NCBI GenBank assembly: GCA_965204925.1
Contig: OZ242021.1
Coordinates: forward strand, 652,000-715,999
Direction of reading: 5' to 3'
DNA from: Candidatus Poriferihabitaceae bacterium
GTDB taxonomy: Bacteria > Pseudomonadota > Gammaproteobacteria > Arenicellales > Poriferihabitantaceae
DNA length: 64,000 nucleotides
Shown here: piece after piece, positions 21,502-53,792 of the stretch
Numbering within the stretch: position 1 is the stretch's first letter
How the letters are laid out: each line of letters starts with the position of its first letter
Translations under genes and position numbers: made by a program
The notes under the pieces: generated by a model
Told to the model about the DNA's origin: nothing
Database searches by the model: none
Seen by the model: the letters and a program-made list of their open reading frames with translations, nothing else

Positions 21502-21539
21502 ATTGTGCGGGTCATTCTCCTTGACTGGCGAGGCTTGGC

Positions 21540-24656: not shown

Positions 24657-24670
24657 ATCAGAGCGGATCG

Positions 24671-25054
24671 TCAGAATTTTCTGTAGGCGTTCATCAGATC
24701 AACCATGGGATGGGAACCCGACATCTGGAATTTGACGAGCAATTCGCGCGCGATCATATCGCGGTCCTGCTGGTTATCCGGCAATTCCACGCTTTTCGGG
24801 ATTTGCACCCAGCCGTTGATATTGCGGTCGAATACGGCCGGCTTGCCCTCTTCGTACCCCATGTGTACATCTTCCAGCCAGTTCAGATCCTGCCAGCCCA
24901 TGATTTTCATATAGGTTTTCAAAAATTCGGTACAGCGCTCCATGTCCGGCGCGAGATTGACGTCATAGCGGTAACCGATATGCTGGCCGATAGCCTTCTC
25001 GCGATCAGAATCAAGGCCGTCCGATTCGATAAACTTGTCCACATCATTATTCAT
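24671..25054 (-). CDS. hypothetical protein (127 aa, acidic, no recognisable motif)
   Basis: The ORF has GGAG 8 nt upstream of the ATG at 25052-25054. It is wedged between mgsC (stop 25080) and pdxJ (start 24656) on the same strand. No family recognised. Confidence 0.5.
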   Translation of the reverse strand: MNNDVDKFIESDGLDSDREKAIGQHIGYRYDVNLAPDMERCTEFLKTYMKIMGWQDLNWLEDVHMGYEEGKPAVFDRNINGWVQIPKSVELPDNQQDRDMIARELLVKFQMSGSHPMVDLMNAYRKF

Positions 25055-25079
25055 GTTGATCTCCAACGCTCCGCCTCAT

Positions 25080-26420: not shown

Positions 26421-26451
26421 TTCTGTTATCGCTTACCGCTGTTTTGCCGTT

Positions 26452-28214: not shown

Positions 28215-28271
28215 GATAATTCCTCACTTAACGGGTTTCCGGTTTTGATGTCTAACCCCCGGCAAAAGGCG

Positions 28272-29810: not shown

Positions 29811-30172
29811 TTTATTCTCCAATGGGGCATTTAATGGATACGCGACCTGTTATTAAACAGGATGAGAAACCGCTTTGCAACCGGTAGACGGTGGACGATT
29901 GCAATTTCGTGACAGTTCGGGAAGCGGCGAAGCGGCTCTTCCGCCCGCGGGCGGACACGGCAACCCGTCCGCGCCACAGTTCCGGTTCACGGCATATTCT
30001 TGCGGGTAGCGGGGCAGTAAACGGACAGGCGGACAACAGACGCTGGAAGCGCCGGGTCAGGAATCTCGCCAAAATAAACTGTTTGTTCAGGCGGCCGGTA
30101 TGTCACCGTTTCGGTGGGGGTGTTTCTGGACGGGCAGAGCCACCGGGGCGGTCCGCAAGAGCGCAGGACATT

Positions 30173-31219: not shown

Positions 31220-31630
31220 ATGTCATCAAAAACCACCTACAGTATTTCGGATCTGGCCAGACACTTCGATATTACGACCCGCGCCATCCGCTTTTATGAA
31301 ACCGAAAAGTTACTGTCACCGCGGCGGGAAAACAACAAACGGGTGTACGGCGAACGGGACCGGGTACGGCTGCAACTGATCCTGAGAGGAAAGAGAATCG
31401 GTTTTTCCCTGGAAGAGATTAAAACCACGATGGAGCTGTATGATACCCATCCGAACGAGTCGGCGCAGCTGGAATTCGTGTTGCATACCATCCGCATACA
31501 CAAACGGGAGCTGAAACAAAAGCAGGCCGATATCTCCGACACACTGGATGACATGGACTCGGTGGCGAAGAAAGTGCGTACGAAACTTGAAAGTATCCAA
31601 TCCGCGGAAAAACGTTATGAGTCAATATAG
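31220..31630 (+). CDS. MerR family transcriptional regulator (LiuR-like)
   Basis: YSISDLARHFDITTRAIRFYETEKLL is a MerR HTH. 136 aa. Overlaps the downstream ACAD by 14 nt. Confidence 0.8.
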   Translation: MSSKTTYSISDLARHFDITTRAIRFYETEKLLSPRRENNKRVYGERDRVRLQLILRGKRIGFSLEEIKTTMELYDTHPNESAQLEFVLHTIRIHKRELKQKQADISDTLDDMDSVAKKVRTKLESIQSAEKRYESI

Positions 31631-33419
31631 GGTACCGGCGCGCGACATCCTGTTTGCCATCGAGCATGTCGCCGACCTGGAAGGCGTGAACCGTCTGCCG
31701 GGTTGTCAGGAAGCGACGCCGGAGGCGATCAGCGCCATTCTTGTCGAGGCCGGGAAACTCGCGGAAAAAGTGCTGGACCCGCTCAACCGGATCGGCGACA
31801 AGCAGGGAGTCCGGCTACAGGACGGCAAGGTGCGTACGCCGGACGGCTGGGGCGCGGCATGGCGGCAGTTCATCGCCGGCGGCTGGAATGGCATACCGTT
31901 CGACCCGAAGCGCGGCGGCATGGGTCTGCCCTGGCTGGTAGCCGCCGCGGTGCAGGAAATCTGGCATTCATCGAACATGGCGTTTTCGCTCTGTACGCTG
32001 CTCAACCAGGGCGCTATCGCAGCCATCGACCGGCACGGTTCCAGCGCACAGAAGGATACTTTCCTCGGCAATCTGATCCATGGCAACTGGTGCGGCACGA
32101 TGAACCTGACCGAACCCCAGGCCGGCTCCGATTTGGGGCTGGTCAAGACCCTGGCGACCCCGCATGGCGATCACTACCTGCTCAGCGGTCAGAAGATATT
32201 CATCACCTACGGCGACCACGACATGACCGACAATATCGTTCACCTGGTGCTGGCGCGCACGCCGGCGGCGCCGCGCGGAGTAAAAGGTATCTCACTGTTC
32301 ATCGTGCCCAAGTACCTGCCTGACGAAGACGGCAACTGGACGGTGCGCAACGATGTCGAGACCCTTTCCCTTGAGCGCAAGCTCGGCATTCACGGCAGTC
32401 CGACCGCGGTTCTGGGCTATGGTACCGGCCGCTACCGCGACCCTGCGGGCGCCGTTGGCTGGCTGGTCGGAGAGGAAAACCGCGGCATGGCATGTATGTT
32501 CACGATGATGAATGTTGCGCGGCTGGCCGTCGGTCTGGAAGGCAACGGGGTGGCGGAACGGGCCTATCAGCAGGCCGTCTGGTTCGCCGGTGAGCGGGTA
32601 CAGGGTTGCGCAATCGGGAATACGGACGGCGAACGGGTGGCAATCATCGATCATCCTGACGTCAAGCGTATGCTGATGTTGCAGAAATGCCGCATCGAAG
32701 GGCTGCGTTCTCTGGGGCTGGCGCTGGGCGGCTCACTGGACAAGGCGCTCAAATCCCCCGACCCGCAGACACGGGAACCGGCGCAGGCCATGGTCGATAT
32801 ACTGACCCCGATAGTCAAGGGGTACATGACAGAGATGGGCCTCGAGAATGTGTCATTGGCGTTGCAGGTACACGGCGGCATGGGGTTCATCGAGGAAACC
32901 GGCGCGGCGCAGTATTACCGCGACCAGCGCATTACCCCGATTTATGAAGGCACCAACGGGATTCAGGCGCTCGACCTGATCGGGCGCAAACTGGTGCGCG
33001 ATAACGGCCGTACCGCGCGGATTGTGATCGGCCATATGCGTAACGATATGTCGAATGTGCATCAGAGCGAGTTGAATGATCTGCGTGACCGCGCGCTGGC
33101 CGGCATTGATGATTTGGAAGCCGTCATTGAAAGCATACTGGTCATGGCGGCCGATGACATGCGCAAGCCGGCCAGCATCGCCGACCCGTATTTGCGGCTG
33201 TGGGGCGTCGTGTGCTGTGCGTGGCAACTGGCGCGGGCAGCGTCCGCCGCGATGGCGCTGGGCGCCGACAGCGACCGCTTCTATGCCGCCAAAATCGAGA
33301 CCGCCCGTTTCTATTTCGCTTGCGAGATGCCGAAGGCGGCCTGTTACCGCAGCATCATTACACAAGCGGCCGGCGCCGTTGCGCGGCTTGACGCCGGCCT
33401 GTTCGAAACCTTGCAATAA
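31617..33419 (+). CDS. long (600 aa) acyl-CoA dehydrogenase with C-terminal extension (FadE/DmdC-type)
   Basis: ACAD N, middle and C domains (MNLTEPQAGSDLG...IYEGTNGIQ) plus a ~150-aa C-terminal extension. ATG at 31617. Confidence 0.8.
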   Translation: MSQYRVPARDILFAIEHVADLEGVNRLPGCQEATPEAISAILVEAGKLAEKVLDPLNRIGDKQGVRLQDGKVRTPDGWGAAWRQFIAGGWNGIPFDPKRGGMGLPWLVAAAVQEIWHSSNMAFSLCTLLNQGAIAAIDRHGSSAQKDTFLGNLIHGNWCGTMNLTEPQAGSDLGLVKTLATPHGDHYLLSGQKIFITYGDHDMTDNIVHLVLARTPAAPRGVKGISLFIVPKYLPDEDGNWTVRNDVETLSLERKLGIHGSPTAVLGYGTGRYRDPAGAVGWLVGEENRGMACMFTMMNVARLAVGLEGNGVAERAYQQAVWFAGERVQGCAIGNTDGERVAIIDHPDVKRMLMLQKCRIEGLRSLGLALGGSLDKALKSPDPQTREPAQAMVDILTPIVKGYMTEMGLENVSLALQVHGGMGFIEETGAAQYYRDQRITPIYEGTNGIQALDLIGRKLVRDNGRTARIVIGHMRNDMSNVHQSELNDLRDRALAGIDDLEAVIESILVMAADDMRKPASIADPYLRLWGVVCCAWQLARAASAAMALGADSDRFYAAKIETARFYFACEMPKAACYRSIITQAAGAVARLDAGLFETLQ

Positions 33420-41422: not shown

Positions 41423-42733
41423 ATGCCCAGGACCCTGTTTCGCAAGACCCTCAGCGCGCCGGGCCTCCTGCGGCTGGTGCGTGGGGATTTCGATCGCATC
41501 GAAGACCCCGTAGCAAGCCGTGGCCTGGGTCTGACGGACTGCCTGATGTCGGCTTTGGCGATGTTCAGCCTGAAGTACCCGTCGCTGCTGAGCTTTGAAA
41601 AGGATGCGCGCGACGAGGACCGTATCCGGTCGAACCTCAAAAACCTGTACGGGGTGGTTCGCGCGCCATCGGATACGGCCATGCGTGAGCGTCTGGATCT
41701 GGTAGACCCGCGCTCGCTCCGCCGTGTTTTCAAGAGCGTGTTTGCCGCTTTGCAACGGGGCAAGGGTTTGGAGGGTTTCACCTGGTTGGGTCACCATCTG
41801 CTGTCGGTAGACGGCACCGGGTATTTCTCATCGAAGAAGGTGCATTGTGAGCGCTGTTGCGAGAAGCATCACCGCGATGGCAGCACGACCTGGTACCACC
41901 AGATGCTGGCGGCGGTGCTGGTTCACCCGCAACACCGGGAGGTATTTCCGCTCGCCCCGGAGCCGCTCCTGCGGGCAGACGGGTCGCGCAAGAACGATTG
42001 CGAACGCAATGCCGCCAGGCGGCTGTTGCGGGACGCGCGACGGGAGCATCGGCGCCTGAAGTTGCTGGTGGTGGAAGATGCGCTGGCCTCGAACGGCCCG
42101 CACATCCGGCTGCTGGAGGAACTGGATATGCGATATGTGCTGGGGGTGAAGCCGGGAGATCATGGGGAACTGTTCCACTGGGTGGGCGTCACGGCGGCGA
42201 CCCGTAGCGTGGAGATGGAGAAGGACGGCGCCCGCTTCCGCTTCCGATTCCTGAACGGCGTGCCGTTGAATGACGCGAATTTCGATTTGGAGGTGAACTT
42301 CCTGGAATGCCAGGAGACCCGCGCGGACGGTCGGATACTGCATTTCTCCTGGGTCACGGACCTGGAAGTCACGGAATCCAACGCATACGAACTGATGCGG
42401 GCGGGACGTGCTCGCTGGCGCATCGAGAATGAAACATTCAATACCCTGAAGAACCAAGGCTACGGCTTTGAACACAATTTCGGTCACGGCCGGCAACATC
42501 TGGCGACGGTGTTCGCCCACCTGATGATGTTGGCGTTCCTCATGGATCAGGTGCAGCAACGGCGCTGCTCGCTGTTCCGCGCCGCGCGCGCCAAGGCGGG
42601 CAGTTTGAGGTCCCTGTGGGAGCGGCTGCGCGGGCTGTTCTCGGGATTCCACGTTGCGGACTGGGAGACGCTGTACCGGGGTATCGCGTTCGGGCACCGC
42701 AAGCCTGAGCTGGAGCCCTTCGACACATCCTGA
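41423..42733 (+). CDS. DDE transposase (IS4-superfamily-like)
   Basis: 436 aa. GGAGGA lies upstream of the ATG. Candidate catalytic residues are in LLSVDGTGYF, LVVEDALASNG and RWRIENETFNTLK (a Y-R-E-K-like C-terminal block, recalled as IS4-type). The exact IS family was not determined. Confidence 0.8.
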   Translation: MPRTLFRKTLSAPGLLRLVRGDFDRIEDPVASRGLGLTDCLMSALAMFSLKYPSLLSFEKDARDEDRIRSNLKNLYGVVRAPSDTAMRERLDLVDPRSLRRVFKSVFAALQRGKGLEGFTWLGHHLLSVDGTGYFSSKKVHCERCCEKHHRDGSTTWYHQMLAAVLVHPQHREVFPLAPEPLLRADGSRKNDCERNAARRLLRDARREHRRLKLLVVEDALASNGPHIRLLEELDMRYVLGVKPGDHGELFHWVGVTAATRSVEMEKDGARFRFRFLNGVPLNDANFDLEVNFLECQETRADGRILHFSWVTDLEVTESNAYELMRAGRARWRIENETFNTLKNQGYGFEHNFGHGRQHLATVFAHLMMLAFLMDQVQQRRCSLFRAARAKAGSLRSLWERLRGLFSGFHVADWETLYRGIAFGHRKPELEPFDTS

Positions 42734-42890
42734 CCCGGTGCCGTGACCGAGTGTGTGAAAGGCCGGTTCTTCAGGAAAACCCATGGCCAACCGCCGATCC
42801 GGCAATCCGCCGGAGGGGTGGCCTTGTCCGCATACCCTTAACGCCTGCGTTTGCATCCGAAAATCCCGCCGAATCCATGTGGGGATGTCC

Positions 42891-42906
42891 TTAGCGGGAA
42901 TTGCTG
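42891..42906. repeat. IS right terminal inverted repeat
   Basis: TTAGCGGGAATTGCTG, matching 16/16 with the reverse complement of 41293-41308. Confidence 0.9.
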
Positions 42907-43162
42907 GCGTCCTTATGACGGCATTGGCTTACTCACTCCCGTGGGGTATTATCGGTAATTCACACAGGCCAAACCATAATCTCATATGCTTGCGCCTGAA
43001 CATAATAATCCGCACACAGTCAAGAGACAGACCAATGCTGAAACGAGTGGCCGAAACCGTCAGCACCACTCGGCTTCTCCACCAGTTCGACAGTCAGGTC
43101 GAATGCCTGAAGCGGCTTGGGCAAGGTCATGCGAGGCGGATTTCCTACAAAGACCTGACTTC

Positions 43163-44047
43163 ATGAGTGAATTCGGTAGCACATTCCCGAGCCATGCCGA
43201 GCTGAGCAGGGAACGGAAAGTAACCGGAAGAAAAGAAAAAGAAATCAGGCGGGTCAAGCATCATTATTCCAATGGATTTGCCGTAGAGGAAAACCCTCTT
43301 CCCCCGGCATATCGGAACAAGATCGTTACGGGAGACAGTCTGGCTGAATTGAAGAAGCTACCGGACAACTGCATTGACCTGATTTTCACTTCACCGCCCT
43401 ACAATTTCGGTCTCGACTACGAAAAGAAAGATGATGCGGTATTCTGGGAAACCTATTTTTCCCGGCTGTTCAGTATATTCGATCAGTGCATCCGTGTCCT
43501 GAAACATGGAGGACGCCTGATTGTTAACGTTCAACCCCTTTTTTCTGACTACATTCCGAGTCATCATATTATCTCCAGTCACATGTTGGACAGGGGCATG
43601 ATATGGAAAGGAGAAATACTGTGGGAGAAGAACAACTACAACTGCAAATACACCGCCTGGGGAAGCTGGAAAAGCCCGGGCAGCCCGTATCTGAAATACA
43701 CATGGGAGTTTGTCGAGGTGTTCTGCAAGGGGTCTCTGAAAAAGGCGGGCAAACCGGAAGATGCGGATATACTGGGAGATGACTTCAAGAAATGGGTCTA
43801 TGCAAAGTGGTCCATTGCCCCTGAACGGAGGATGAAGGAGTTTGACCACCCTGCCGTATTCCCGGAAGAACTGGCAAGGCGGGTGATCCAGTTATTCAGC
43901 TTCCGCAATGACATTATTCTGGATCCATTCAACGGGGTCGGAACGACAACCCTGGTTGCGCACCAGTACAGCAGAAGGTATCTCGGTATTGATATCTCGG
44001 CAAAGTACAACCGCGTGGCCAGGTGGAGGATCAAGGAGTGTCTCTAA
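43163..44047 (+). CDS. beta-class N4/N6 DNA methyltransferase, probably N4-cytosine (SPPY)
   Basis: Motif IV DLIFTSPPYN precedes motif I ILDPFNGVGTT (beta-class order), and HPAVFPEELARRVI is typical of the N6_N4_Mtase family. SPPY rather than DPPY favours m4C, which is a rule of thumb and not proof. Confidence 0.85.
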   Translation: MSEFGSTFPSHAELSRERKVTGRKEKEIRRVKHHYSNGFAVEENPLPPAYRNKIVTGDSLAELKKLPDNCIDLIFTSPPYNFGLDYEKKDDAVFWETYFSRLFSIFDQCIRVLKHGGRLIVNVQPLFSDYIPSHHIISSHMLDRGMIWKGEILWEKNNYNCKYTAWGSWKSPGSPYLKYTWEFVEVFCKGSLKKAGKPEDADILGDDFKKWVYAKWSIAPERRMKEFDHPAVFPEELARRVIQLFSFRNDIILDPFNGVGTTTLVAHQYSRRYLGIDISAKYNRVARWRIKECL

Positions 44048-44841
44048 GTGCAGAACAGATGTCCTGGCTGGAGAAGATCAAGAAAGATGGCGGCTGTCAC
44101 GCCAGTAACATTCTTGCCAAGAGGAACAGCCCGGATATAGGCCGGTTCATTGACGAATATATCCGATTCAGCGATACCCTGAAGGGCTCACTGGATGGGG
44201 CTGTCAACGCTCTGAACAGATACAAGGATTACGTCGATGAGCATAACGTTTATACCGCTCAATCGAAGTTTGCTCCGACGATAATCGAAGAGTTCCTCTG
44301 CAGGATATTGAAAAAGGAGTTTGGAAACGACGTTTTGCAGTACGGCCCGGTTTCAGCCTACAGCAGCCTTTACTTCTCTTGGTCCGATAAGGCGGAGTTC
44401 AAGGAAGGAATTGAGATCAAGCTGAACGTCAAGGATCAGGATGTTGGCATCTACAAGAAAGAAACCCTCACCACCAGCACTGGAGGAGAGCACGAAATCT
44501 CAATCCCCATTGTCTGTATCGAGTGCAAGATCTATCTGGATAAAACCATGTATGAAGGAAGCGTTGCTACAGCAACCAGGATCAAGACGGGAAATCCATA
44601 CTGTCTGTTCTTCATCGTGACAGAGACGTATGACGTAAGAAAGGACGTGGATATCGAAACGACGCAGATTGACAACATCTATGTTCTCCGCAAGCAACGG
44701 AGAAGCCGAAAAAACTCACCGATAAACCCGATCTGCACGGATGTAATGCAACATCTTCTGGACGCCGTCCGAACAAAGCTGGATTCCATCCGCATGACTG
44801 TTGATGAACGCATTACCTCTCCTGGATACATCCGCCAGTAG
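44023..44841 (+). CDS. putative type II restriction endonuclease (PD-(D/E)XK candidate)
   Basis: Overlaps the methylase 3' end by 25 nt (GTG at 44023; alternative starts GTG 44038 and ATG 44059). VKDQD...x28...IECK fits a D...E-x-K pattern. No family recognised; the call rests mainly on position. Confidence 0.55.
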   Translation: MEDQGVSLSAEQMSWLEKIKKDGGCHASNILAKRNSPDIGRFIDEYIRFSDTLKGSLDGAVNALNRYKDYVDEHNVYTAQSKFAPTIIEEFLCRILKKEFGNDVLQYGPVSAYSSLYFSWSDKAEFKEGIEIKLNVKDQDVGIYKKETLTTSTGGEHEISIPIVCIECKIYLDKTMYEGSVATATRIKTGNPYCLFFIVTETYDVRKDVDIETTQIDNIYVLRKQRRSRKNSPINPICTDVMQHLLDAVRTKLDSIRMTVDERITSPGYIRQ

Positions 44842-45027: not shown

Positions 45028-45744
45028 TCACACACGGCATAATGCCATGAAATTATCGTAAAGCTGTCTGGCGTTATCGGCGAACGAATCCATGCTGGCA
45101 TCGCTGTGCGCCTTGATATCCTTGAGAGCGGTCGGTCCCAGGGAATTTTCCAGCGCCTGTCTGTAAGCCGCAATTTCTCCCCAGTCGCTGACCGTGTGCG
45201 GCTCGATCTCGACATGATACTGCATGGACCAGGCGCGCTTGCCGACCCGCATCGCCTGCACACGGCACAGGTCGGAAGAAGCCAGCACGACGGCGTTTTC
45301 CGGCGGCTGGGCCACCCGAACCGAATGCCATTGCAGGCATTTCTGAATGGCGGGCATATTCCTGAAAATCGGATCCGACCGCCCTTCTTCGGTCAGTTCG
45401 ACCTCCATTACGCCAATCTCGGGCGGGTTCTGCGGTCCGCAGGTGCCGCCAAGCGCATCCGCCAGCAGCTGATGCCCCAGACACAGGCCCAGAAAAGGCC
45501 TGTTCAAGTCGTTTACCCATTTGCGAATGGCCTGTTTCTCGGCGATCATCCAGGGGTTCTCATCGACATCCCATACATCCATGGGTCCGCCCATCACCCA
45601 TAGCGCATCGTAGCGCGAAAGATCGGGAATCGGCTCGCCCGCATCCAGTTCCACGGCCTGCCATCCAATCCCGTCCTGTTTGAGGAAATTTCTCAAAATT
45701 CCGGGGTGCTCACAGTCTATATGTTGAAAAACCAGCAGATTCAC
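45028..45744 (-). CDS. class I glutamine amidotransferase (stand-alone GuaA-N-like GATase1)
   Basis: GLCLGHQ nucleophile elbow and QYHVE (His/Glu) give an intact Cys-His-Glu triad. GTG start. Lies 50 nt downstream of hdrB on the same strand. Confidence 0.8.
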   Translation of the reverse strand: MNLLVFQHIDCEHPGILRNFLKQDGIGWQAVELDAGEPIPDLSRYDALWVMGGPMDVWDVDENPWMIAEKQAIRKWVNDLNRPFLGLCLGHQLLADALGGTCGPQNPPEIGVMEVELTEEGRSDPIFRNMPAIQKCLQWHSVRVAQPPENAVVLASSDLCRVQAMRVGKRAWSMQYHVEIEPHTVSDWGEIAAYRQALENSLGPTALKDIKAHSDASMDSFADNARQLYDNFMALCRV

Positions 45745-45794
45745 AGTTATCGGGCGCGTGGTCAGGGTTTGTCGGGGATTGTTCGGGCGATGAG

Positions 45795-46706
45795 TTATGC
45801 GCCTGCGATTTTTTCCAGTTTTTTCGCGCGGATCACCTGACCGTCAAGACCGGCTTCTCTGGCGGTGCCGCCGTAAGCCACGGTCATCAACTGGCTGTAA
45901 TAAACGACCGGCATTTTGAATTTCGTGCTGTACGTCTTGTTGATCCGCTCCTGGTAAACCTCGACATTCATCTGGCAAACCGGGCACGGGGTAACGATCA
46001 TGTCGGCATCGTGATCATATGCCGATTCAACGATTTCCTTGATCTGCGCCTGGCTTTTCTCAGGTTCGGAGAAAGCCAGGGCGCCGCCGCAGCAGGTGAC
46101 TTTCTGCTCATATTTGTCAGCCGCCTCGGCGCCCATCGTCTCAACCATTTTATCCAGATATTTGGGGTTCTCGAACGACTCGCCGTCGATGCCGAACGGG
46201 CGGTTGGTCTGGCAGCCGACATAACCCGCGATTTTCAATCCGTCCAGCGGCTTTTTAACCGGCGCCTCAAGCTCGTCGTAGCCGAAATCCTCGATAAGCA
46301 CCTCGACCATGTGGCGAACCCCCTTCGCGGTGTCCTTGTTGATGTCTACGTTGAGACCGGCGTCGGCGAGAATGTTCCGGGTGTCGGCCAGCAGCTGCTC
46401 CGATTTTGACAGACGTTCCACCGATTCTTTCGCGCCGAGCCAGCAGGCGGCGCAGGTGGCGACGATATCCTGACCCGCATTATGCTGTTGCGACAGGGCA
46501 ATGTTTCTCGCATTCATGACATGGCGGGGCAATTCCCCGCCTTCGCTATAACCGATCGATGCGCCGCAGCAATTCCAGTCGGGAATCTCGTTGAGCTTGA
46601 TATCGAGGGTCTTGCACATCGATTCCACAGATACCATATAGTTGGAGGCCGATGCGTTGCGTTCTGACGAACAACCCGGGTAAAACGAATATTCTTTTCT
46701 GGCCAT
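45795..46706 (-). CDS. hdrB: heterodisulfide reductase subunit B-like (two CCG domains)
   Basis: YPGCS...NCCGA...CAAC and GCQ...TCCGG...CPVC form two CCG cysteine-rich domains. Start chosen at the ATG at 46704-46706 (MARKEYSFYPGC). Confidence 0.85.
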   Translation of the reverse strand: MARKEYSFYPGCSSERNASASNYMVSVESMCKTLDIKLNEIPDWNCCGASIGYSEGGELPRHVMNARNIALSQQHNAGQDIVATCAACWLGAKESVERLSKSEQLLADTRNILADAGLNVDINKDTAKGVRHMVEVLIEDFGYDELEAPVKKPLDGLKIAGYVGCQTNRPFGIDGESFENPKYLDKMVETMGAEAADKYEQKVTCCGGALAFSEPEKSQAQIKEIVESAYDHDADMIVTPCPVCQMNVEVYQERINKTYSTKFKMPVVYYSQLMTVAYGGTAREAGLDGQVIRAKKLEKIAGA

Positions 46707-46722
46707 TTGGGGCAAACCTCGT

Positions 46723-47367
46723 TTAATTGAATCCTTTGCGTTTATCTTCGATCTCGCGAGCCTTTTTAAGCATCCGCCGAAGCTGGGATTTTTGCCGGAT
46801 TCCCCCGGAGCGGAAAAGGGCGAAAGGGTTGAGGCGGCGGGTCAGTAACATTCCGAGCCCGATGTTGCGCATCGCGAAAGCGGTTTTGATTCCCTCGATC
46901 GGACCATTCATGAAATACAGCTTCATGGACAGCCGGGTTTCATTGACGCGCCCGGTCGTGCTGATATTATCCCAGAAAATTCTGGCAAACCGTCTGGTCG
47001 GATTCATCCTGGGCGCCAGACCGAGCCGATTGGCATAGTTCGCCAGACCGTGCATGATATGGGTGATCGGAAGGCCTCTCGGACAACGCACAATACAGTT
47101 GTAACAGGACGTACACATCCACATCGACTCGCTGGCGAGCACCTCTTCCCGCTGCCCCGCCCGAATCATCATGAACAATTCCTGCGGGGGGCGCTCCCAG
47201 GCATCTCCCAGTGGGCAGGAACCGGAACAGACCCCGCACTGCATGCACATTTTCACCCACTCCCCTTCCTCGACATTGGCTTCGACTTCTCGCAGGAAAC
47301 TGTTTCGATATTTCTCGATCATCGACGTATTGACGGCGGACGGAGACGGCGCGCTGGCGGAAAGCAT
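46723..47367 (-). CDS. hdrC: heterodisulfide reductase subunit C-like (2x[4Fe-4S])
   Basis: CMQCGVCSGSCP and CTSCYNCIVRCP ferredoxin-type motifs. 214 aa. Confidence 0.8.
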   Translation of the reverse strand: MLSASAPSPSAVNTSMIEKYRNSFLREVEANVEEGEWVKMCMQCGVCSGSCPLGDAWERPPQELFMMIRAGQREEVLASESMWMCTSCYNCIVRCPRGLPITHIMHGLANYANRLGLAPRMNPTRRFARIFWDNISTTGRVNETRLSMKLYFMNGPIEGIKTAFAMRNIGLGMLLTRRLNPFALFRSGGIRQKSQLRRMLKKAREIEDKRKGFN

Positions 47368-47369
47368 CA

Positions 47370-49610
47370 CTAAAAGCCCTTGAACGGGTTCATGCCGATT
47401 TCCTCAATGCGTGCGGCATATTCATTGATCAGACGCGGTATACGATCGATGTCGGTGATTTCCACTTCATATGTCTGTACACGCTCCGGCTCAAGCTGCA
47501 ACTGGGCCAGCGTATCATCAACCTTGCTCATGCGCTCATGGGCCAGTCCCGAACCGTCTACGAAATGGCACTGATAGTCCTCGCCTTTTTTGCAGCCCAT
47601 CAACAGGATACCATCGAATCCCGAATTGAGCGCATCGGTTATCCAGATCAGGTTGACCGATCCCAGACAACGAATCGGTACGACACGTACAAACGCGCTG
47701 TATTCGATGCGGTTATGCCCCGCCATATCCAGCGCCGGATAGGCGTCATTCTCACAGGCCAGAACGAGAATTCGCGGTTTTTCATCAAATTCATCGGGCA
47801 TATCAATGCTTTTGATCTGCTGGCCCACCGTATCGACCGAATAGTTTTCAAAGGAAATGACCCGTACCGGACAGGCGCCCATGCACGTGCCGCAACGCCG
47901 GCAGCGGGATTCGTTGAAAACAGGGTAGCCGTCCCCGTCTTCATCAATGGCGCCGAACGGACACTCGACTGTACAGCGCTTGCATTGTGTGCAACCGTCG
48001 CGGCGAAAAGAAGGCCAGGACAAATCCCCCGACCTTGGATGGGCCGCGCGCCCCATTGCCGCGCCTTCCACAGCCTGTATGGCTTTCATGGCCGCGCCGG
48101 TAGCGTCTTCAACCGACTGGACGATGTCCATCGGACGGCGCACCGGGCCACAACTGTAAATACCGGTGCGGCGGGTTTCATACGGGAAGCAGATAAAATG
48201 CGAATCACTGAAACCGTGTTTAAGGTGGGGCAGGTCCGCTCCCTGCCGATAGTCGAGGTTCAGGATCGAATCGACGCTCACCCGCGCCTGGCCTGCGCTG
48301 CCCGCGGGCTCGGCAGGCGCCTGGATGTCAACCCCGGAATTGGGCGCCTGTCCCGTTGCCAGAACGACCAAATCGGCATGCGCCACCACTTCCTCGTCCA
48401 GAATATGGTCATGCAGTACGACCTCCAGCGATACCGAACCGGACGCAGCCGCAATCTCGCTGACCGATTGCACCGTGCCGTTGGTAAAGATCACGCCTTT
48501 CGTTTGCGCAGAACGGTAGAAGTCCTCCCCGTTGCCGGGCACGCGCAGGTCGCTGTAGATGATATGGGTCTCGACATCGGGGCTGCGATCCTTGAAATAC
48601 ATGGCCTGCTTGATACTTGCGTTGCAGCAATAACCGGAGCACCAGGGCAGATGCCCCGGTTTGCCGGAGCGTTGCCCGGCACACTGCACGAACACGACGC
48701 TCTCGACCGGTTTGCCGTCAGAAGGGCGTGTGATCGCGTCACCATCCGCCGCGCGGGCCAGAGCTTCGAGTCCAATCTGGTCGACGACATCCTGTGCGCG
48801 GCCATAAGCGAATTCGGGCAGCTGGCTGGCGTCATATCGGTTGAAACCGCTGGCCTGTACGATGGCGCCGACATTTTCAGTGCCGGTTGAGCCGCTCTCT
48901 GTCGAAATATCGACGCTGAACTGCCCGGGAGCGCCGCTGGTGCGGGTCACCGTAGCATTCAGAAAGACGGTGATACCGGCTTCCATCTCCACTTCGCGGA
49001 TGCGCTCCGCAAGCGGGTTGACCTGCGGGTGCGCATACGGCTCCCTGCATGGCAAAACACGATGGAGCTCCCTGACCCACCCCCCCAAAGCGGACTCTTT
49101 CTCGACCAGCAATACTTCGTAACCGGCTTTGGCCGCTTCCAGCGCTGCGGTGATGCCGCTGATGCCGCCGCCGACAACGAGTATGCGCCTGTTCACGCCA
49201 CGCGCCGGATTGGCGGCGGGCTGCTGCATGAATCTGGCTTCGGCACAGGCCATGCGCACATAGTCGTCCGCCATATCCTGGGTCAATTCCCGGGCTTCCT
49301 CCGTATCCGGCTGGCTCCAGATCACCCCTTCCCGCAGATTCGCTCTGGCGACAGCTGCGTCTTCCAGGTTGAATGCGTCCGTTTTCGCCCTTGGCGAGCA
49401 GGCTCCCAGCACAACATGGGTGACGCCTTCCTGTTCGATATCGCGGCGAATGAGGGAGATGCCGTCGTCACTGCATAAATAATCGTGACATGTGGCGAGG
49501 TCGGCGCCGCCCTGCGATTTGGCGATATGAACCAGCTGGTCAATATCAAGCCGCTCTCCCAGGCCACAGCCCTTGCACATGTACGCCGCCGTTTTCATCG
49601 TGTCCGTCAT
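47370..49610 (-). CDS. qmoB: QmoB-like protein: HdrA-type FAD/FeS oxidoreductase fused to a C-terminal MvhD (FlpD) domain
   Basis: 746 aa. Contains VVGGGISGITAAL (FAD), the HdrA-like CSGYCC cluster, two ferredoxin CxxCxxCxxxCP motifs, and C-terminal ILVLACENDAY...RCLG...LLMGC typical of MvhD. Confidence 0.75.
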   Translation of the reverse strand: MTDTMKTAAYMCKGCGLGERLDIDQLVHIAKSQGGADLATCHDYLCSDDGISLIRRDIEQEGVTHVVLGACSPRAKTDAFNLEDAAVARANLREGVIWSQPDTEEARELTQDMADDYVRMACAEARFMQQPAANPARGVNRRILVVGGGISGITAALEAAKAGYEVLLVEKESALGGWVRELHRVLPCREPYAHPQVNPLAERIREVEMEAGITVFLNATVTRTSGAPGQFSVDISTESGSTGTENVGAIVQASGFNRYDASQLPEFAYGRAQDVVDQIGLEALARAADGDAITRPSDGKPVESVVFVQCAGQRSGKPGHLPWCSGYCCNASIKQAMYFKDRSPDVETHIIYSDLRVPGNGEDFYRSAQTKGVIFTNGTVQSVSEIAAASGSVSLEVVLHDHILDEEVVAHADLVVLATGQAPNSGVDIQAPAEPAGSAGQARVSVDSILNLDYRQGADLPHLKHGFSDSHFICFPYETRRTGIYSCGPVRRPMDIVQSVEDATGAAMKAIQAVEGAAMGRAAHPRSGDLSWPSFRRDGCTQCKRCTVECPFGAIDEDGDGYPVFNESRCRRCGTCMGACPVRVISFENYSVDTVGQQIKSIDMPDEFDEKPRILVLACENDAYPALDMAGHNRIEYSAFVRVVPIRCLGSVNLIWITDALNSGFDGILLMGCKKGEDYQCHFVDGSGLAHERMSKVDDTLAQLQLEPERVQTYEVEITDIDRIPRLINEYAARIEEIGMNPFKGF

Positions 49611-49616
49611 TTCCCG

Positions 49617-50909
49617 CTACGCCGACACGCGATTGACCACCTGGATTGCGCGCAACGCCGCAGCGGTCGCGTTCTGCACGGAGCGGTTCACGTCAAGAGC
49701 GTTCGTTGCGCAGCCGGCGCCGAAAACCCCTCCGTTGGCAGGATCCAGCTCGATGAAACCACTACGGTCGGTACTCAGGCCGTGCGCGGTTTTCATGATC
49801 GACGCGGGGTTCAGGTTCGGTTCCATGCCGACTGCCAGCACGACCAGATCATGGGGGTTTGCATATCGCTTGCAGCCATGGGTATCGACTCCGTGCAAAA
49901 CCGGTTTTCCGCTTTTTGGGTCCCTGACGATACTGGCCACCTTGGATTTGATGAAATGCACTTTTTCATCGGCGCGCACTTTCTTCTCGAAATCCTCGAA
50001 GCGGTCGATCGTGCGGATATCGATATAGTAAATCGTTGCCCGGGCGCGCTCATCGTCACCGAACTGCTCGCCAACATAGGTACTTTGTTTCAATGATGCC
50101 ATACAACAGATTCTCGAGCAATGCGACAGGTGATTGCGGTCGCGCGAACCGGCGCACTGAATAAAGGCAATATCCCTGGCAGGCTCTCCGTTGGACGGCC
50201 GGATCAGCTTGCCGCCGGTCGGGCCATAGGGGTCCATGATGCGTTCGAGTTCGACACTGGTGATGACATCTTCATATCGCTCATAGCCGTAGGGTTCGAT
50301 ACGGGCAGCGTCATAGGGACGCCAGCCGGTCGCGAATACGACAGCGCCGCAGTGAATGTCGATCGTGCGCTCCTGCATTTCGAGATCGATCGCATCCACA
50401 GGACAGGCCGCTTTCGCCTTCTGTCCCTGTTCATTGCCGACGATAGACGGGTGCAGAACATAGCGCTGTGGATAGGCCATGTTATGGGGCAGCCAGGCCG
50501 CCTTGATCTTGCTCAGCCCGTAGTTGTGAGGATCGTCGATTTCGGCGTCGACCGCTCTTGCGCAGTTCCCGCAGGCCGTGCAGTTTTCCCTGACATAGCG
50601 CGGGCGCAGCCTGATCGATGCCGTATAGTTTCCCGCATGCCCGCTTAACGTGGTTATTTCAGCCATCGTCAGAATACGCAGGCTCCGGTTGGCCTTGATC
50701 CTGCGAAAATTGATTTCCTGTCCGCAAGACGGGCGGCACAGCTTGGGGAAGTACTTGTAGAGCTGGGAGACACGGCCGCCCAGCGCCGGATTTTTTTCGA
50801 CCAGAATAACGTCTTTGCCGCATTCAGCGGCCTCGAGAGCGGTCGTCATGCCGCTGATGCCGCCGCCGACAACGAGGATCGTTTCATTTGTGGCAACGAT
50901 ATCGTTCAT
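49617..50909 (-). CDS. qmoA: QmoA-like protein: HdrA-type FAD-dependent oxidoreductase
   Basis: 430 aa. Contains VVGGGISGMTTAL, FIQCAGSRD and CSRICC. Size and gene order (A then B then hdrC, hdrB) fit the qmoAB-hdrCB arrangement. Confidence 0.75.
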   Translation of the reverse strand: MNDIVATNETILVVGGGISGMTTALEAAECGKDVILVEKNPALGGRVSQLYKYFPKLCRPSCGQEINFRRIKANRSLRILTMAEITTLSGHAGNYTASIRLRPRYVRENCTACGNCARAVDAEIDDPHNYGLSKIKAAWLPHNMAYPQRYVLHPSIVGNEQGQKAKAACPVDAIDLEMQERTIDIHCGAVVFATGWRPYDAARIEPYGYERYEDVITSVELERIMDPYGPTGGKLIRPSNGEPARDIAFIQCAGSRDRNHLSHCSRICCMASLKQSTYVGEQFGDDERARATIYYIDIRTIDRFEDFEKKVRADEKVHFIKSKVASIVRDPKSGKPVLHGVDTHGCKRYANPHDLVVLAVGMEPNLNPASIMKTAHGLSTDRSGFIELDPANGGVFGAGCATNALDVNRSVQNATAAALRAIQVVNRVSA

Positions 50910-51231
50910 ATCATATCAAAGTTGAACCGTCCGAACCCCGGCTTGTGTTTACAAATCCCGACTATACGGGTTTTCCGCGCAACAGGCTAGAGCGCAGCCG
51001 AATTTGTTCCCAAAAGTATTCCGATACAGCGATAGAGAATATGTATTCCCATCAGCGGCAGGCTCTGTCTTGTGAATTACGGAGCCATGTCATAGTGAAT
51101 TTCATGGCGTGACAACTTGTTCGGGTTGCCGACCAGTTGAATGTCGAATTTCAGCGAGGGGATTATTTTTGTCTCGGCGTTGTGGATACGAAATGACACT
51201 TGCCAGCCCGAACTCCCAGACTCTGCCGCTG

Positions 51232-51771
51232 TCAGTCTGGCTTATTCCAGGCATTCACGATCAATAATTCCTTTGAATACTTGCTGGCTGACATACCGTA
51301 AGCCCATTCGGGCTTGATCATACAATGTCCGCAATACAAATCCCGAATCAGAGCGCAATCATTATAGGACAACACCCAGCCATCTCTTTTGTTCAAATGA
51401 GCCGCCAGTTCCTCATGACTGAAACTTTCGTGCATATCCCTTCTTTGTCCATACAGTTTGCCTCCATTGGCATAAGGTGGATCCAGATACAGGAATCGAT
51501 CCTTGTGAATGTCGAGGGCATCCCTGTAGTCCAGACATTCGACAAACAGATTGCCGGATTTGAAGTCGCGTAATCGCTTGATTGCAGAAGGGGTAAACCT
51601 CGGATGCCCGGGAGACATACCTCCGGACAACGTTGTTCCTGAAAATGAAGATCGGTTCAGGACAAAGAACACGGCCGCTTTCTCAGCGTTGTCAGGCAAA
51701 TTGTCGTATCGCTTTTGGAGATCATAAGATGTGAGGCTCGGGTTTCGGCTACTTAAGTTCTTGTAAAGATA
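51232..51771 (-). pseudogene. 5'-truncated Dam-type (D12 class) N6-adenine DNA methyltransferase remnant
   Basis: Contains AAVFFVLNRSSFSG and the catalytic LYLDPPYANG. The homologous frame stays open upstream to a stop at 51772-51774. There is no ATG and no N-terminal SAM-binding (FxGxG) region, and only ~40 nt remain before the next gene. Confidence 0.65.
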
Positions 51772-51810
51772 CTATACAGGGATTTTCAAATCCAGCGCCG
51801 ATTCTGAACC

Positions 51811-52806
51811 TCATGGGCGCGGTATCTGTTCGGGGGCAATCTCCGGTTTGCGTTTATGGTGCTCATAAAGGACTGACTGGTCGGTCGATATGAATCTGAA
51901 CGCTATCGTCTGCGGGCGGGCTTCTATCTCGAGGAATCCGTATGTGACCGCGCCGAAATGGTGCTGCGGATTTTCCCGGAGCGGGTACAGCACCGCTCCG
52001 CCAGCCCCTGAAATGAACTGGTCTGCCTGACAGTTATCAATATCGATATGTTCCAGGTGATGGGAATGACCGGACAGGAATGTATCGACATGATCGCAAA
52101 TGGCGCGGCGCACGATCATTCCGCCGAGGCCGCCTCCGCGGTGCCTGCCGCCGCTTGCGCTCGCCGAGTTCAGGGGATGATGGCCGTACGCAATGGACCA
52201 CGGCGTCGAACGCTGTTCAAGGGCGGGAAGCGCTGTGTGTATGAACAGGGGATTGGTTGTATCGATCACATAGAGCGCCAGAAGGTCTTCGAAAAGCGCT
52301 TCGTAGTGTCGATGCGGGAACCACCAGCGAGCATTGATCTCGCCCGCTTGCGTCCAGATACGCGGGTCGCCGTTATAGTCATGATTGCCCAAAGCCGGAA
52401 AGATTGGAAGACCCGCGAGGCACTCACTGCCATACATGTCGAAAATACGCTCATTCCAGTGCGGGTGCTGTAACGTTTGCGTACCATCCGGATAAATCAG
52501 GTCACCGAGCAAAAGCAAGGCGTCGGGTTCCTGTTTTTTACATCTTTCTTCCATCGCTCTGGCGACATCACGCTGTGAAACGGACCCTGAGCCGGAGTCA
52601 CCCAGAGCGAACAACACGACACGCTGGTCATGGGGCATGACGCGGGTCGCGGGAGTATCGACAAATCGCGGATACTTCGCCAGCTTTTCCCGGTATTTGA
52701 CAAACACGATCATCACAATGACAATAATCAGGACAATCAATGTGATCGACACTCTTTTCAGCAGCCGTACCAGCATATTCCAAGGCTTGTTTGTCTTGGT
52801 TTTCAT
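51811..52806 (-). CDS. calcineurin-like metallophosphoesterase with N-terminal membrane anchor
   Basis: GDSGSG, GDLIYPDG, GNHDY, GHHP and GHSHH metallophosphatase motifs. An N-terminal hydrophobic helix is present. Confidence 0.8.
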   Translation of the reverse strand: MKTKTNKPWNMLVRLLKRVSITLIVLIIVIVMIVFVKYREKLAKYPRFVDTPATRVMPHDQRVVLFALGDSGSGSVSQRDVARAMEERCKKQEPDALLLLGDLIYPDGTQTLQHPHWNERIFDMYGSECLAGLPIFPALGNHDYNGDPRIWTQAGEINARWWFPHRHYEALFEDLLALYVIDTTNPLFIHTALPALEQRSTPWSIAYGHHPLNSASASGGRHRGGGLGGMIVRRAICDHVDTFLSGHSHHLEHIDIDNCQADQFISGAGGAVLYPLRENPQHHFGAVTYGFLEIEARPQTIAFRFISTDQSVLYEHHKRKPEIAPEQIPRP

Positions 52807-52982: not shown

Positions 52983-53792
52983 ATGAGCGCTGACCCCGAC
53001 CTCAAGGAATACCGGATTGTCGACGAGCCGTTCTACTCGCCCCGCAGAAACGAGGTGGAGTTGTTCGAGGCCGCCTGTAAAAACACGATCCCGGTATTGC
53101 TGAAAGGTCCGACAGGATGCGGCAAGACCCGCTTCATGGAACACATGGCGTGGAAACTCGAACGCCCCCTCATTACCGTTTCCTGCCATGACGATCTGAC
53201 CGCGTCGGACCTCGTTGGCCGCTATCTGATCATCGGCGGCGAGACGCGCTGGGCGGACGGCCCCCTGACGCGGGCGGTGCGCGGCGGCGGCATCTGCTAT
53301 CTTGATGAAATCGTCGAGGCGCGCAAGGATACCACCGTGGTCATCCATCCTCTGGCCGATGATCGCAGGGTTCTGCCAATCGACAAAACCGGCGAGCTGC
53401 TGACTGCCTCCGATCAGTTTTGTCTGTCCATATCGTATAACCCCGGCTACCAGAGCGTACTCAAGGACCTCAAACAAAGCACTCGGCAACGCTTCGTTTC
53501 CATTGAATTCGACTACCCTCCGGCGCGGCGTGAAACGGACATTGTCATACAGGAATCCGGCCTCGACGAAGCAATGGCGGCACGTCTCGTGAAGTATGCG
53601 GGAATGACCCGAAACCTCAAGGGCAGCGGTCTGGAAGAGGGGGCCAGCACCCGCCTGCTGGTGCATGCGGCGAAGCTGATCGTCAGTGGTATCAGCCCGC
53701 AGGACGCCTGTCGCGGCGCCATATCGGAAACGTTGAGCGACGACCCGGACATGCTGAAAGCGGTGAGTGAACTCAGCGCCTCACTGTTTTGA
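52983..53792 (+). CDS. CbbQ/NirQ/NorQ/GpvN family MoxR-like AAA+ ATPase
   Basis: 269 aa, Walker A GPTGCGKT, Walker B ICYLDEI. The family-typical length and C-terminus are present. The antisense ORF 52803..53666 is rejected. Confidence 0.8.
   Translation: MSADPDLKEYRIVDEPFYSPRRNEVELFEAACKNTIPVLLKGPTGCGKTRFMEHMAWKLERPLITVSCHDDLTASDLVGRYLIIGGETRWADGPLTRAVRGGGICYLDEIVEARKDTTVVIHPLADDRRVLPIDKTGELLTASDQFCLSISYNPGYQSVLKDLKQSTRQRFVSIEFDYPPARRETDIVIQESGLDEAMAARLVKYAGMTRNLKGSGLEEGASTRLLVHAAKLIVSGISPQDACRGAISETLSDDPDMLKAVSELSASLF

Follow-up and report, generated by a model that had tools for sequence, protein, structure and literature searches.

Gene content of the block

A string of genes for QmoA-, QmoB-, HdrC- and HdrB-like proteins, with a class I glutamine amidotransferase (GATase) behind it and no APS reductase genes beside it, raises the question of which electron chain these proteins serve and whether the amidotransferase belongs to that chain. 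An earlier note on this DNA had regarded the string as an orphan module, coupled to an amidotransferase in place of AprBA. Accordingly, the gene content, family placement and neighbourhood of the block were analysed in the window, that is, the whole 64-kb stretch of DNA, and in related genomes. It was concluded that the redox genes probably encode the QmoAB-HdrCB of proteobacterial sulfur oxidisers, which would serve AprBA encoded elsewhere in sulfite oxidation, with the GATase standing outside the chain.

The five ORFs of the block were located exactly where the earlier note had put them, and their Pfam and NCBIfam domains agreed with its description. The features of the block are as follows.

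qmoA, 49617..50909, minus strand: 430 aa; HdrA-like FAD/FeS flavoprotein without an MvhD domain
qmoB, 47370..49610, minus strand: 746 aa, probably 742; HdrA-like flavoprotein, followed by two ferredoxin-type 4Fe-4S motifs and, at the C-terminus, MvhD/FlpD
hdrC-like gene, 46723..47370, minus strand: 215 aa; two 4Fe-4S clusters; stands in for the cytoplasmic part of QmoC
hdrB-like gene, 45795..46715, minus strand: 306 aa; CCG domain present twice, predicted to bind two non-cubane 4Fe-4S clusters
Stand-alone class I glutamine amidotransferase (GATase), GMP-synthase-like, 45028..45744, minus strand: 238 aa; GTG start; clade-specific fifth gene
Stretch upstream of qmoA, 50910..51050, minus strand: conserved, about 140 nt; presumed promoter and leader of the block

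The genes are tightly packed, with 6 nt between qmoA and qmoB, a 1-nt overlap between qmoB and hdrC, 7 nt between hdrC and hdrB, and 50 nt between hdrB and the GATase gene. The start positions could shift by a few codons, as the public copy of QmoB has 742 aa and most close relatives have an HdrC of 212 aa and an HdrB of 303 aa. None of the five proteins has a predicted transmembrane helix, and the cofactor cysteine motifs of the redox proteins are intact.

Upstream of qmoA, the blastn similarity to four genomes (L001, L202, L204 and L205) begins at 51047-51053 and continues unbroken into the gene. A consensus promoter scan of this stretch gave no match to the sigma-70 consensus, and the promoter and terminator scan returned counts not above those of shuffled sequence, with nothing useful at the operon ends. 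The dead Dam methylase named previously as the upstream neighbour was recovered as a truncated D12 (Dam-type) fragment at 51232-51699, which covers only profile positions 109-252 of 253.

Domains and motifs of the redox proteins

In QmoA, the FAD-binding Pfam domains are restricted to the N-terminus, and a GGGISG motif is present at residue 15. Residues 5-426 matched positions 136-561 of the NCBIfam HdrA2 profile (E 9e-102), which is far under the cut-off of that family. The protein has the composition by which QmoA is recognised, an HdrA-derived flavoprotein of about 410-430 aa with neither ferredoxin nor MvhD domains, and it is 62-79% identical to its counterparts encoded upstream of qmoB in the GTDB genomes. 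QmoB is likewise an HdrA-derived flavoprotein, with the two ferredoxin-type 4Fe-4S motifs and the fused C-terminal MvhD that characterise its family: CX2CX2CX3C motifs start at residues 540 and 570, Fer4 domains were matched at 536-586 and FlpD at 614-739 (E 5e-39; Pfam). Moreover, its homologues carry the JGI name QmoB.

The HdrC-like protein matched Fer4_8/Fer4_17, TIGR03290 HdrC (E 4e-22) and the N-terminus of QmoC (E 8e-14), and it contains two CX2CX2CX3C motifs. The HdrB-like protein contains two PF02754 CCG domains with the intact motifs C15...C49C50G...C88xxC91 and C168...C208C209G...C244xxC247. Its best NCBIfam matches were SdhE of methylmenaquinol:fumarate reductase (E 1.5e-51) and HdrB (E 8.5e-40), and it matched the HdrB chains in the PDB at E 4e-30. 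As these two proteins directly follow QmoB and lack predicted transmembrane helices, the proposal that this is the qmoAB-hdrCB variant, in which soluble HdrCB takes the place of membrane QmoC, was borne out.

Family placement and comparison with known systems

The closest relatives of the window QmoB belong to gamma- and betaproteobacterial sulfur oxidisers. Its nearest homologues are those of Ca. Spongiihabitans (74-75% identity) and Thiobacillus (64%), and Poriferihabitaceae and Acidiferrobacteraceae are also among the matches. For comparison, two sets of genomes were used, namely, an immediate clade of five genomes with QmoB at least 85% identical, and 80 more distant GTDB genomes, including T. 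thioparus DSM 505, with QmoB identities of 62-75% and none closer than 75%. The qmoA-qmoB-hdrC-hdrB string is kept in 72 of these 80, and in the other 8 it is cut by contig ends.

In a neighbour-joining tree, which is a distance tree without support values, the window QmoB fell inside a single clade of proteobacterial sulfur oxidisers. The outgroups are QmoB proteins linked to aprA, and the nearest of them (L109) comes from a qmoAB-hdrCB cluster about 3.5 kb from aprA. Moreover, the window QmoB matched aprA-linked QmoB at approximately 730 bits, compared with 212 bits for methanogen HdrA and 97 bits for sHdrA. By the tree and the bit scores, the window QmoB groups with Qmo and not with a characterised non-Qmo Hdr complex, which was the phylogenetic check that the earlier note had called for. 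Gene content, intact cofactor motifs, family placement and the conserved four-gene string are direct observations of this study.

Two other Hdr systems were rejected. An sHdr locus is recognised by duplicated hdrCB pairs and a lone short HdrA of about 340 aa, together with a hyp gene and a nearby lbpA. The lipoate-dependent sHdr (HdrC1B1A-Hyp-C2B2) does not fit, since the block has one hdrCB pair and two HdrA-derived genes, one of them fused to MvhD, and since sHdrA was weakly matched (6tjr; E 9e-27); among the block-flanking ORFs scanned with Pfam, no lipoate-binding protein domain was found. In methanogen-type HdrABC-MvhAGD and Flx-Hdr systems, HdrA is full-length (about 650 aa) and present once, MvhD is a protein of its own, and hydrogenase or flxABCD genes lie alongside. 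This type was dismissed because the NCBIfam HdrA scores (342 and 394 bits) fall far short of the cut-offs (1100-1400), and Pfam revealed no hydrogenase or Flx genes in the block flanks. The window proteins share the fold families and cofactor motifs of the HdrA core, MvhD, HdrC and HdrB with methanogen HdrABC-MvhAGD (5odc, 7bkb, 8rvu); however, HdrA-derived subunits number two in the window and one in the methanogen complex, MvhD forms part of QmoB, and hydrogenase genes are lacking.

The closest known system is the proteobacterial QmoAB-HdrBC, or HdrAACB, of Thiobacillus denitrificans, T. thioparus, Thiolapillus brandeum Hiromi 1 and Ca. Taurinisymbion ianthellae, which has the same four genes in the same order and tight packing. 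As in the window, these genes are not beside aprBA, and QmoC and transmembrane helices are absent. The redox proteins themselves are no different, whereas the window clade adds a class I GATase after hdrB, and the host group is undescribed, with sponge symbionts as its closest named relatives.

The type I QmoABC of Desulfovibrio, Archaeoglobus and Chlorobi, which is the AprBA partner characterised by biochemistry, has homologous QmoA and QmoB with the same domain plan, including the MvhD fusion of QmoB. Between the window QmoB and the aprA-linked metagenomic copies, the identity is 38-49%. Unlike QmoABC, the window has soluble HdrC and HdrB for the membrane di-haem QmoC, its genes lie outside any aprBA-qmoABC cluster, and the presumed direction is oxidative. 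In the case of the qmoAB-hdrCB of Gram-positive sulfate reducers (Desulfotomaculum type), the subunit composition is that of the window, and HdrC and HdrB of the aprA-linked example L109 are 43% and 41% identical to the window proteins, respectively. However, the Desulfotomaculum-type genes stand beside aprBA and act reductively, whereas the window version belongs to a separate clade of proteobacterial sulfur oxidisers and is unlinked.

Linkage to aprBA and sat

The absence of aprBA and sat alongside the string, as reported earlier, was found to extend over the 64-kb window, in which tblastn queries (six types of AprA, with AprB and Sat represented once each) detected no homologue and the aprA primer motif was not found. 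Similarly, Pfam detected no dsr, sox or other sulfur-oxidation domains in 43 other ORFs of the window. Nevertheless, the orphan reading does not hold, as the relatives are sulfur oxidisers and aprA lies within 10 kb in just one of the 80 related genomes (L078, about 3 kb from hdrB). The accompanying premise, that the variant is known only from Gram-positive sulfate reducers and always located by aprBA, is wrong for this lineage, in which the relatives are proteobacterial and 79 of 80 are without aprA within that distance. The aprA loci were pulled from metagenomes with the AprA-1-FW primer motif, and full AprA sequences were taken from them. When the protein collection was searched with a lineage II AprA, at least 120 matches were obtained, and those listed were all of the Thiobacillus or Sulfuricella type with at least 87% identity.

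A qmoAB-hdrBC cluster unlinked to aprAB has already been described (PMC4136832, PMC10356861, PMC10504309, PMC6397845). In Thiolapillus brandeum Hiromi 1, qmoAB-hdrBC is not beside aprAB, and the qmoAB-hdrBC organisation was noted in Thiobacillus denitrificans (PMC4136832); HdrAACB/QmoABHdrCB is itself listed as one of the standard gene sets for sulfur oxidation (PMC6397845). The QmoAB-HdrCB module of the window is of this ordinary kind, which normally lies away from the APS reductase genes. Thus, the many sulfur oxidisers with this arrangement gain a further genome, whose group has sponge symbionts as its closest named relatives, and the assumption that QmoAB-HdrCB is restricted to Gram-positive sulfate reducers or obligatorily beside aprBA is corrected.

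As qmo is unlinked to aprBA in nearly all sulfur-oxidiser relatives, the partnership of Qmo with AprBA rests on co-occurrence and on homology with sulfate reducers. In published phylogenies, Qmo and AprBA are reported to group consistently, and qmo was found with lineage II apr loci (PMC2211403, PMC10504309). The metaproteome of a sponge symbiont contained all three of AprA, QmoB and HdrB (PMC10356861), and a sponge-associated genome of the genus LS-SOB, kin of Ca. Spongiihabitans thiooxidans, has sat, aprAB and dsrAB (PMC12426252). QmoABC binds AprAB with a KD of 90 nM, chiefly via QmoA; this Desulfovibrio complex is the sole known case of interaction, and electron exchange of Qmo with AprBA has not been reconstituted for any organism, Desulfovibrio included (PMC3333476).

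Alternatively, QmoAB-HdrCB might operate independently of AprBA, as a soluble and possibly bifurcating heterodisulfide-type reductase that would, for example, recycle DsrC or a low-molecular-weight disulfide and provide reductant for CO2 fixation. The separation from aprBA in 79 relatives is consistent with this, and both CCG motifs of HdrB are intact, the CCG cluster being the disulfide-reducing site in methanogen Hdr. Moreover, cbbQ lies divergently upstream of qmoA in the window and in 23 of the 80 GTDB relatives, and the in situ function has been called not clear (PMC4136832). However, cbbQ-cbbO also flank sat-aprBA in a Thiobacillus-type genome, and therefore the cbbQ link does not separate Qmo from Apr. 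The congruent phylogenies, the aprA-linked cluster as the nearest outgroup of the tree, the aprA gene near hdrB in L078 and the co-expression of AprA, QmoB and HdrB in the sponge symbiont also argue against independence from AprBA, which we consider unlikely.

Our inference on the AprBA partnership, on the direction in which electrons flow and on where they end is as follows. Cytoplasmic sulfite from reverse Dsr or from organosulfonate breakdown would be coupled to AMP by the APS reductase AprBA, presumably encoded elsewhere in the genome. The two electrons would pass from AprB to QmoA and QmoB (FAD, FeS and an MvhD-type cluster), and onward via the two HdrC clusters to the pair of CCG clusters in HdrB. 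The candidate acceptor beyond them is a quinone at the membrane surface, as suggested by the CCG-type SdhE anchors, or a protein or low-molecular-weight disulfide, and flavin-based bifurcation may take part at this step. Sat would then turn APS plus pyrophosphate into ATP and sulfate. Which acceptor HdrB uses in sulfur oxidisers, with a quinone, a disulfide or a bifurcating pair as the candidates, is of wider interest.

The amidotransferase behind hdrB

The product of the fifth gene matched PF00117 (E 1e-18). On alignment to PDB GATases, its Cys-His-Glu triad was confirmed to be intact, with C88 in GLCLGHQ and H177 and E179 in YHVE. As noted previously, the gene lies 50 nt downstream of hdrB on the same strand; no terminator was found in this gap. 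The neighbour is conserved, a point on which the earlier note had made its reading depend: three other genomes of the immediate clade (L202, L204 and L205) have the GATase gene directly after hdrB. Consequently, it is present there in four of the five clade genomes and missing in the fifth, while none of the 80 more distant relatives has it within 10 kb of the string. In this small clade, the gene stands at the 3' end of the block, with which it is probably co-transcribed.

The lower-GC R-M islet reported downstream was recovered at 42986-44841, with an N4/N6 methylase and a Bpu10I-like endonuclease at a GC of 0.48-0.50, compared with 0.57 for the window. The GATase gene was ruled out as part of this foreign islet because it matches the qmo genes in GC and GC3 and its position is kept in relatives with different downstream genes.

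It was also considered whether QmoAB-HdrCB and the GATase form one unit that replaces AprBA, in a thiol/disulfide or sulfur-nitrogen reaction using glutamine-derived ammonia or a gamma-glutamyl substrate. The shared strand, the short gap (18-50 nt), the missing terminator and the common GC and GC3 are in line with such a unit, and related GATases also adjoin dsrAB and stand upstream of sat-aprBA. Furthermore, the five genes form a single block with sharp, conserved ends in four genomes with otherwise differing flanks, which leaves some room for a functional tie of the GATase. However, the gene is absent near the string in all 80 distant relatives and in one of the five clade genomes, and in L206 two unrelated genes lie between hdrB and the GATase gene. 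Homologues at least 68% identical are widespread in other contexts, an alphaproteobacterium included, and those with 72-77% identity, again including an alphaproteobacterium, occur in contexts without sulfur genes. Among contigs longer than 1 Mb with a listed GATase homologue, only the window's own contig and that of L202 match, by length, a contig with a listed QmoB homologue. A synthetase domain, as expected of a two-component amidotransferase, is absent from the GATase protein and its neighbours in the window, L202, L204 and L205. The Qmo proteins are, moreover, typical of the sulfur-oxidiser clade that co-occurs with AprBA (PMC2211403, PMC10504309). The coupling to an amidotransferase in place of AprBA, as proposed earlier, is therefore without support, and we regard a unit of this kind as very unlikely.

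Instead, the sequence comparisons predict that the GATase, a native protein of wide distribution, works as a stand-alone amidotransferase or gamma-glutamyl hydrolase outside the electron chain. Several unassigned stand-alone class I GATases (PDB 9xfs, TM1158/1o1y and 3m3p) and the plant enzyme GGP1 (9k7i) resemble it in fold, Cys-His-Glu triad, length (about 240 aa) and the lack of a synthetase domain, and none of them has a known link to sulfur oxidation. The characterised gamma-glutamyl peptidase GGP1 itself is a weak match (E 2e-11).

Similar GATases were found next to sulfur operons at least three separate times: after qmoAB-hdrCB in the window clade; directly upstream of dsrAB, in a genome with a dsr operon and an 86%-identical GATase; and before sat-aprBA in Thiobacillus-type genomes, where a 137-aa protein lies between. 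A literature search for a glutamine amidotransferase linked to aprBA or sat gave no paper with both terms. A GMP-synthase-like class I GATase, possibly a gamma-glutamyl hydrolase, might accordingly be a recurrent accessory of the cytoplasmic sulfur-oxidation machinery, although we consider this distinctly improbable. If true, its substrate might be a gamma-glutamyl thiol carrier (glutathione or glutathione amide persulfide, for example) or alternatively an organosulfur compound that feeds sulfite to Apr/Qmo. Since the GATase is absent by qmo in all 80 other relatives and common without sulfur genes, lineage-specific synteny is more likely than an accessory role. The recurrence of stand-alone class I amidotransferases by qmo, dsr and sat-apr operons in separate lineages is nonetheless of wider interest.

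Gene content and family placement of the module

The Qmo/Hdr genes and the class I glutamine amidotransferase (GATase) were confirmed by ORF calls, Pfam, and NCBIfam as five open reading frames with the positions and domains assigned earlier.

Genes of the five-gene block (domains from Pfam and NCBIfam)
49617-50909, minus: qmoA, HdrA-like flavoprotein, 430 aa
47370-49610, minus: qmoB, HdrA-like, carrying two clusters of the ferredoxin type plus FlpD/MvhD at the C-terminus, 746 aa
46723-47370, minus: hdrC, HdrC-like dicluster protein, 215 aa
45795-46715, minus: hdrB, HdrB-like with two CCG domains, 306 aa
45028-45744, minus: class I glutamine amidotransferase, 238 aa

qmoA and qmoB are 6 nt apart, qmoB and hdrC overlap by 1 nt, hdrC and hdrB are separated by 7 nt, and the GATase gene follows hdrB after 50 nt. 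A sequence motif check found all cofactor cysteine motifs in the block intact, and the intact GATase triad was verified as Cys88/His177/Glu179. No transmembrane helices were predicted in any of the five proteins.

Among the matches listed, the nearest QmoB homologues were from gamma- and betaproteobacterial sulfur oxidisers. The identity was 74–75% to Ca. Spongiihabitans and 64% to Thiobacillus, including T. thioparus DSM 505, and homologues from Ca. Poriferihabitaceae, Acidiferrobacteraceae, Sulfuricella, Sideroxydans, and related groups also fell below the Spongiihabitans values. These homologues are annotated as QmoB by JGI. The matches listed also included a 100%-identical copy on a 2.62-Mb public contig and copies 85–86% identical in four further genomes; these five genomes are termed the immediate clade. 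In a neighbour-joining tree, the window grouped with the four other immediate-clade genomes as sister to Ca. Spongiihabitans, nested in a single proteobacterial sulfur-oxidiser clade. The outgroups were QmoB copies adjoining aprA in metagenomes, and the nearest of them (L109) also belongs to a qmoAB-hdrCB cluster, approximately 3.5 kb from aprA. In contrast, methanogen HdrA and sHdrA matched the window protein much more weakly, and the NCBIfam HdrA scores of the window proteins were far under the family cut-offs. Since these results rule out the other Hdr families, the module is assigned by sequence comparison to the Qmo complex of the HdrCB type. The name qmoAB-hdrCB was correct according to both the tree placement and the domains.

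Position relative to aprBA

No AprA, AprB, or Sat homologues were found anywhere in the 64-kb window by tblastn and the aprA primer motif, as had been noted for the immediate surroundings of the block, and Pfam detected no dsr, sox, or other sulfur-oxidation domains in 43 other window ORFs. The 10-kb flanks of the cluster were compared in 80 GTDB genomes and searched by tblastn, using AprB, Sat, and six types of AprA as queries. The qmoA-qmoB-hdrC-hdrB string was present in 72 genomes and cut by contig ends in the remaining eight, and aprA lay near the cluster in only one (L078). In Thiolapillus brandeum (strain Hiromi 1), the qmoAB-hdrBC cluster does not lie next to the aprAB genes, and the qmoAB-hdrBC organisation was also noted in T. 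denitrificans (PMC4136832). A published list counts HdrAACB/QmoABHdrCB among the standard gene sets of sulfur oxidation (PMC6397845), and a sponge symbiont carries hdrBC in place of qmoC, with AprA, QmoB, and HdrB proteins detected together (PMC10356861). The arrangement unlinked to aprBA is normal and previously published; the earlier note identified the module correctly, but its "orphan" position is not unusual.

In L078 (Thiohalomonadales), the contig ends in an aprA fragment (12107-12547, opposite strand, ~3 kb after hdrB) that shares 92% identity with lineage II AprA of the Thiobacillus type. On the metagenome contig L149 (6-4277), aprA is accompanied by an HdrB-like gene with 64% identity to the window HdrB, which lies ~2 kb from aprA on the opposite strand and is apparently frameshifted (two tblastn segments); qmoAB was not detected within the stretch examined.

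Proposed electron transfer

From homology and the cited literature, an electron chain can be proposed. AprBA, presumably encoded elsewhere, would oxidise sulfite, with AMP, to APS. Electrons from AprB would enter the complex at QmoA, which in Desulfovibrio is the contact subunit (PMC3333476), and travel by way of QmoB and HdrC to HdrB, whose two CCG clusters would hand them to a further acceptor. As the best NCBIfam match of HdrB was SdhE, which anchors a menaquinol:fumarate reductase to the membrane and is of the CCG type, it is plausible that a quinone accepts the electrons at the membrane surface; flavin-based bifurcation or a disulfide acceptor is possible. A related sponge-associated genome, assigned to the genus LS-SOB, carries sat together with aprAB and dsrAB (PMC12426252).

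Genes upstream of qmoA

In the window (52983-53792, plus strand) and in 23 of the 80 relatives (among L002-L056), a divergent cbbQ is found at most 1.5 kb upstream of qmoA; this gene encodes an AAA+ protein of the RuBisCO activase type and is often accompanied by cbbO. Also, cbbQ-cbbO follows sat-aprBA in the Thiobacillus-type genome L211 (11667-14616), making the link between Qmo/Apr genes and cbbQO a recurrent one. In betaproteobacterial relatives, pyrophosphate- or phosphoester-related genes are often upstream of qmoA: a proton-pumping pyrophosphatase at 7 loci, a soluble pyrophosphatase at 12, and a Metallophos_2 phosphoesterase at 21 (for example, L033 5104-7152, L057 2771-3319, and L069 7742-8293). 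The Metallophos gene of the window clade (51811-52806) is a different one. These genes may possibly be linked to the pyrophosphate required by Sat.

The amidotransferase neighbour

The GATase gene directly follows hdrB in three other clade genomes (L202, L204, and L205; gaps of 18–27 nt), so the neighbour is conserved in some relatives. It was absent within 10 kb of the cluster in all 80 GTDB relatives, and in L001 of the immediate clade bioY follows hdrB in its place. The window and the three genomes share a single unbroken nucleotide-similarity block that begins ~140 nt upstream of qmoA and ends with the stop codon of the GATase gene; beyond it, the flanks differ between genomes on both sides. 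As the GC and GC3 of the GATase gene equal those of the qmo genes and no terminator was found in the hdrB-GATase gap, membership in the foreign restriction-modification (R-M) islet is ruled out; the gene is therefore native and probably the last of the operon in this clade.

The earlier note read the GATase as functionally coupled to the module. Against this stand the clade genome that lacks it after hdrB, and locus L206, where unrelated RapA and nucleoside deoxyribosyltransferase genes separate hdrB from the GATase. Moreover, GATases 72–77% identical occur in unrelated contexts, one in the alphaproteobacterium Denitrobaculum, and when, among the matches listed, large contigs with GATase homologues were compared by length to contigs with QmoB homologues, only the window's own contig and that of L202 agreed. 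No synthetase partner gene was found nearby, and the nearest solved structures are orphan GATases, with plant gamma-glutamyl peptidase a weaker structural-database match. The neighbour is a clade-specific feature, and redox coupling is unsupported by this evidence.

Amidotransferases also adjoin other sulfur-oxidation operons. In L203 (8361-20361), from a sixth genome (2.99 Mb), a GATase sharing 86% identity with that of the window immediately precedes a dsr operon (dsrAB-dsrC-dsrMK-dsrL-dsrOP-dsrN-like), 200 nt upstream on the same strand, with TauD and DUF924 genes divergent on its other side. A second, conserved arrangement occurs in the complete Thiobacillus-type genome L211 and three metagenome contigs: a class I GATase with 35% identity to the window protein is followed by a 137-aa protein, sat, aprB, and aprA, with cbbQ-cbbO further on in L211.

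Loci with the order GATase, 137-aa protein, sat, aprBA
L211, 4692-10022
L147, 1360-6927
L160, 2337-6224
L167, 5547-8467

The 137-aa protein has no Pfam domain and no homologue in the window or the qmo loci. Amidotransferases of this type are therefore found next to sulfur-oxidation operons of three kinds, in separate lineages. The association was noticed post hoc and is rare (0/80 qmo loci; 3/120 aprA loci, all from one lineage), and no paper was found tying a glutamine amidotransferase to aprBA or sat. A real functional link is very unlikely, and the recurrence is one small open lead.

Surroundings of the block

The dead Dam methylase and lower-GC R-M islet reported beside the block were supported by domain and GC analysis.

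Features flanking the block
51232-51699: fragment of a D12 (Dam-type) methylase, truncated; lies between qmoA and the Metallophos gene
42986-44841: lower-GC R-M pair, Bpu10I-like endonuclease and N4/N6 methylase
41423-42733: DDE transposase

The methylase fragment (GC 0.47) is carried by an insertion of ~800 bp (51051-51851); in L001 and L204, the Metallophos and qmoA regions are contiguous without it. The site just 3' of the GATase gene holds R-M genes in both the window (41423-44841) and L204 (14641-22229), but the sets differ, that of L204 comprising two other methylases, a HATPase_c_3 protein, and a ResIII-type (helicase-like) endonuclease. This site appears to be an insertion hot spot for defence genes.

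By Pfam, the window also carries a methylated-amine utilisation island (20002-29822).

Genes of the methylated-amine island
20002-21501: FMO-like trimethylamine monooxygenase
21540-23906: DUF1989+GCV_T protein, TMAO demethylase-like
25080-28214: N-methylglutamate synthase-like trio
28272-29822: glutamine-synthetase-like GmaS

Two further stretches, 17065-19974 and 31548-33419, encode an aminomethyltransferase of the GCV_T family, a CoA ligase of the AMP-binding type, and a long acyl-CoA dehydrogenase that includes an Acyl-CoA_dh_C domain, a set that may resemble dmdA, dmdB, and dmdC of DMSP demethylation.
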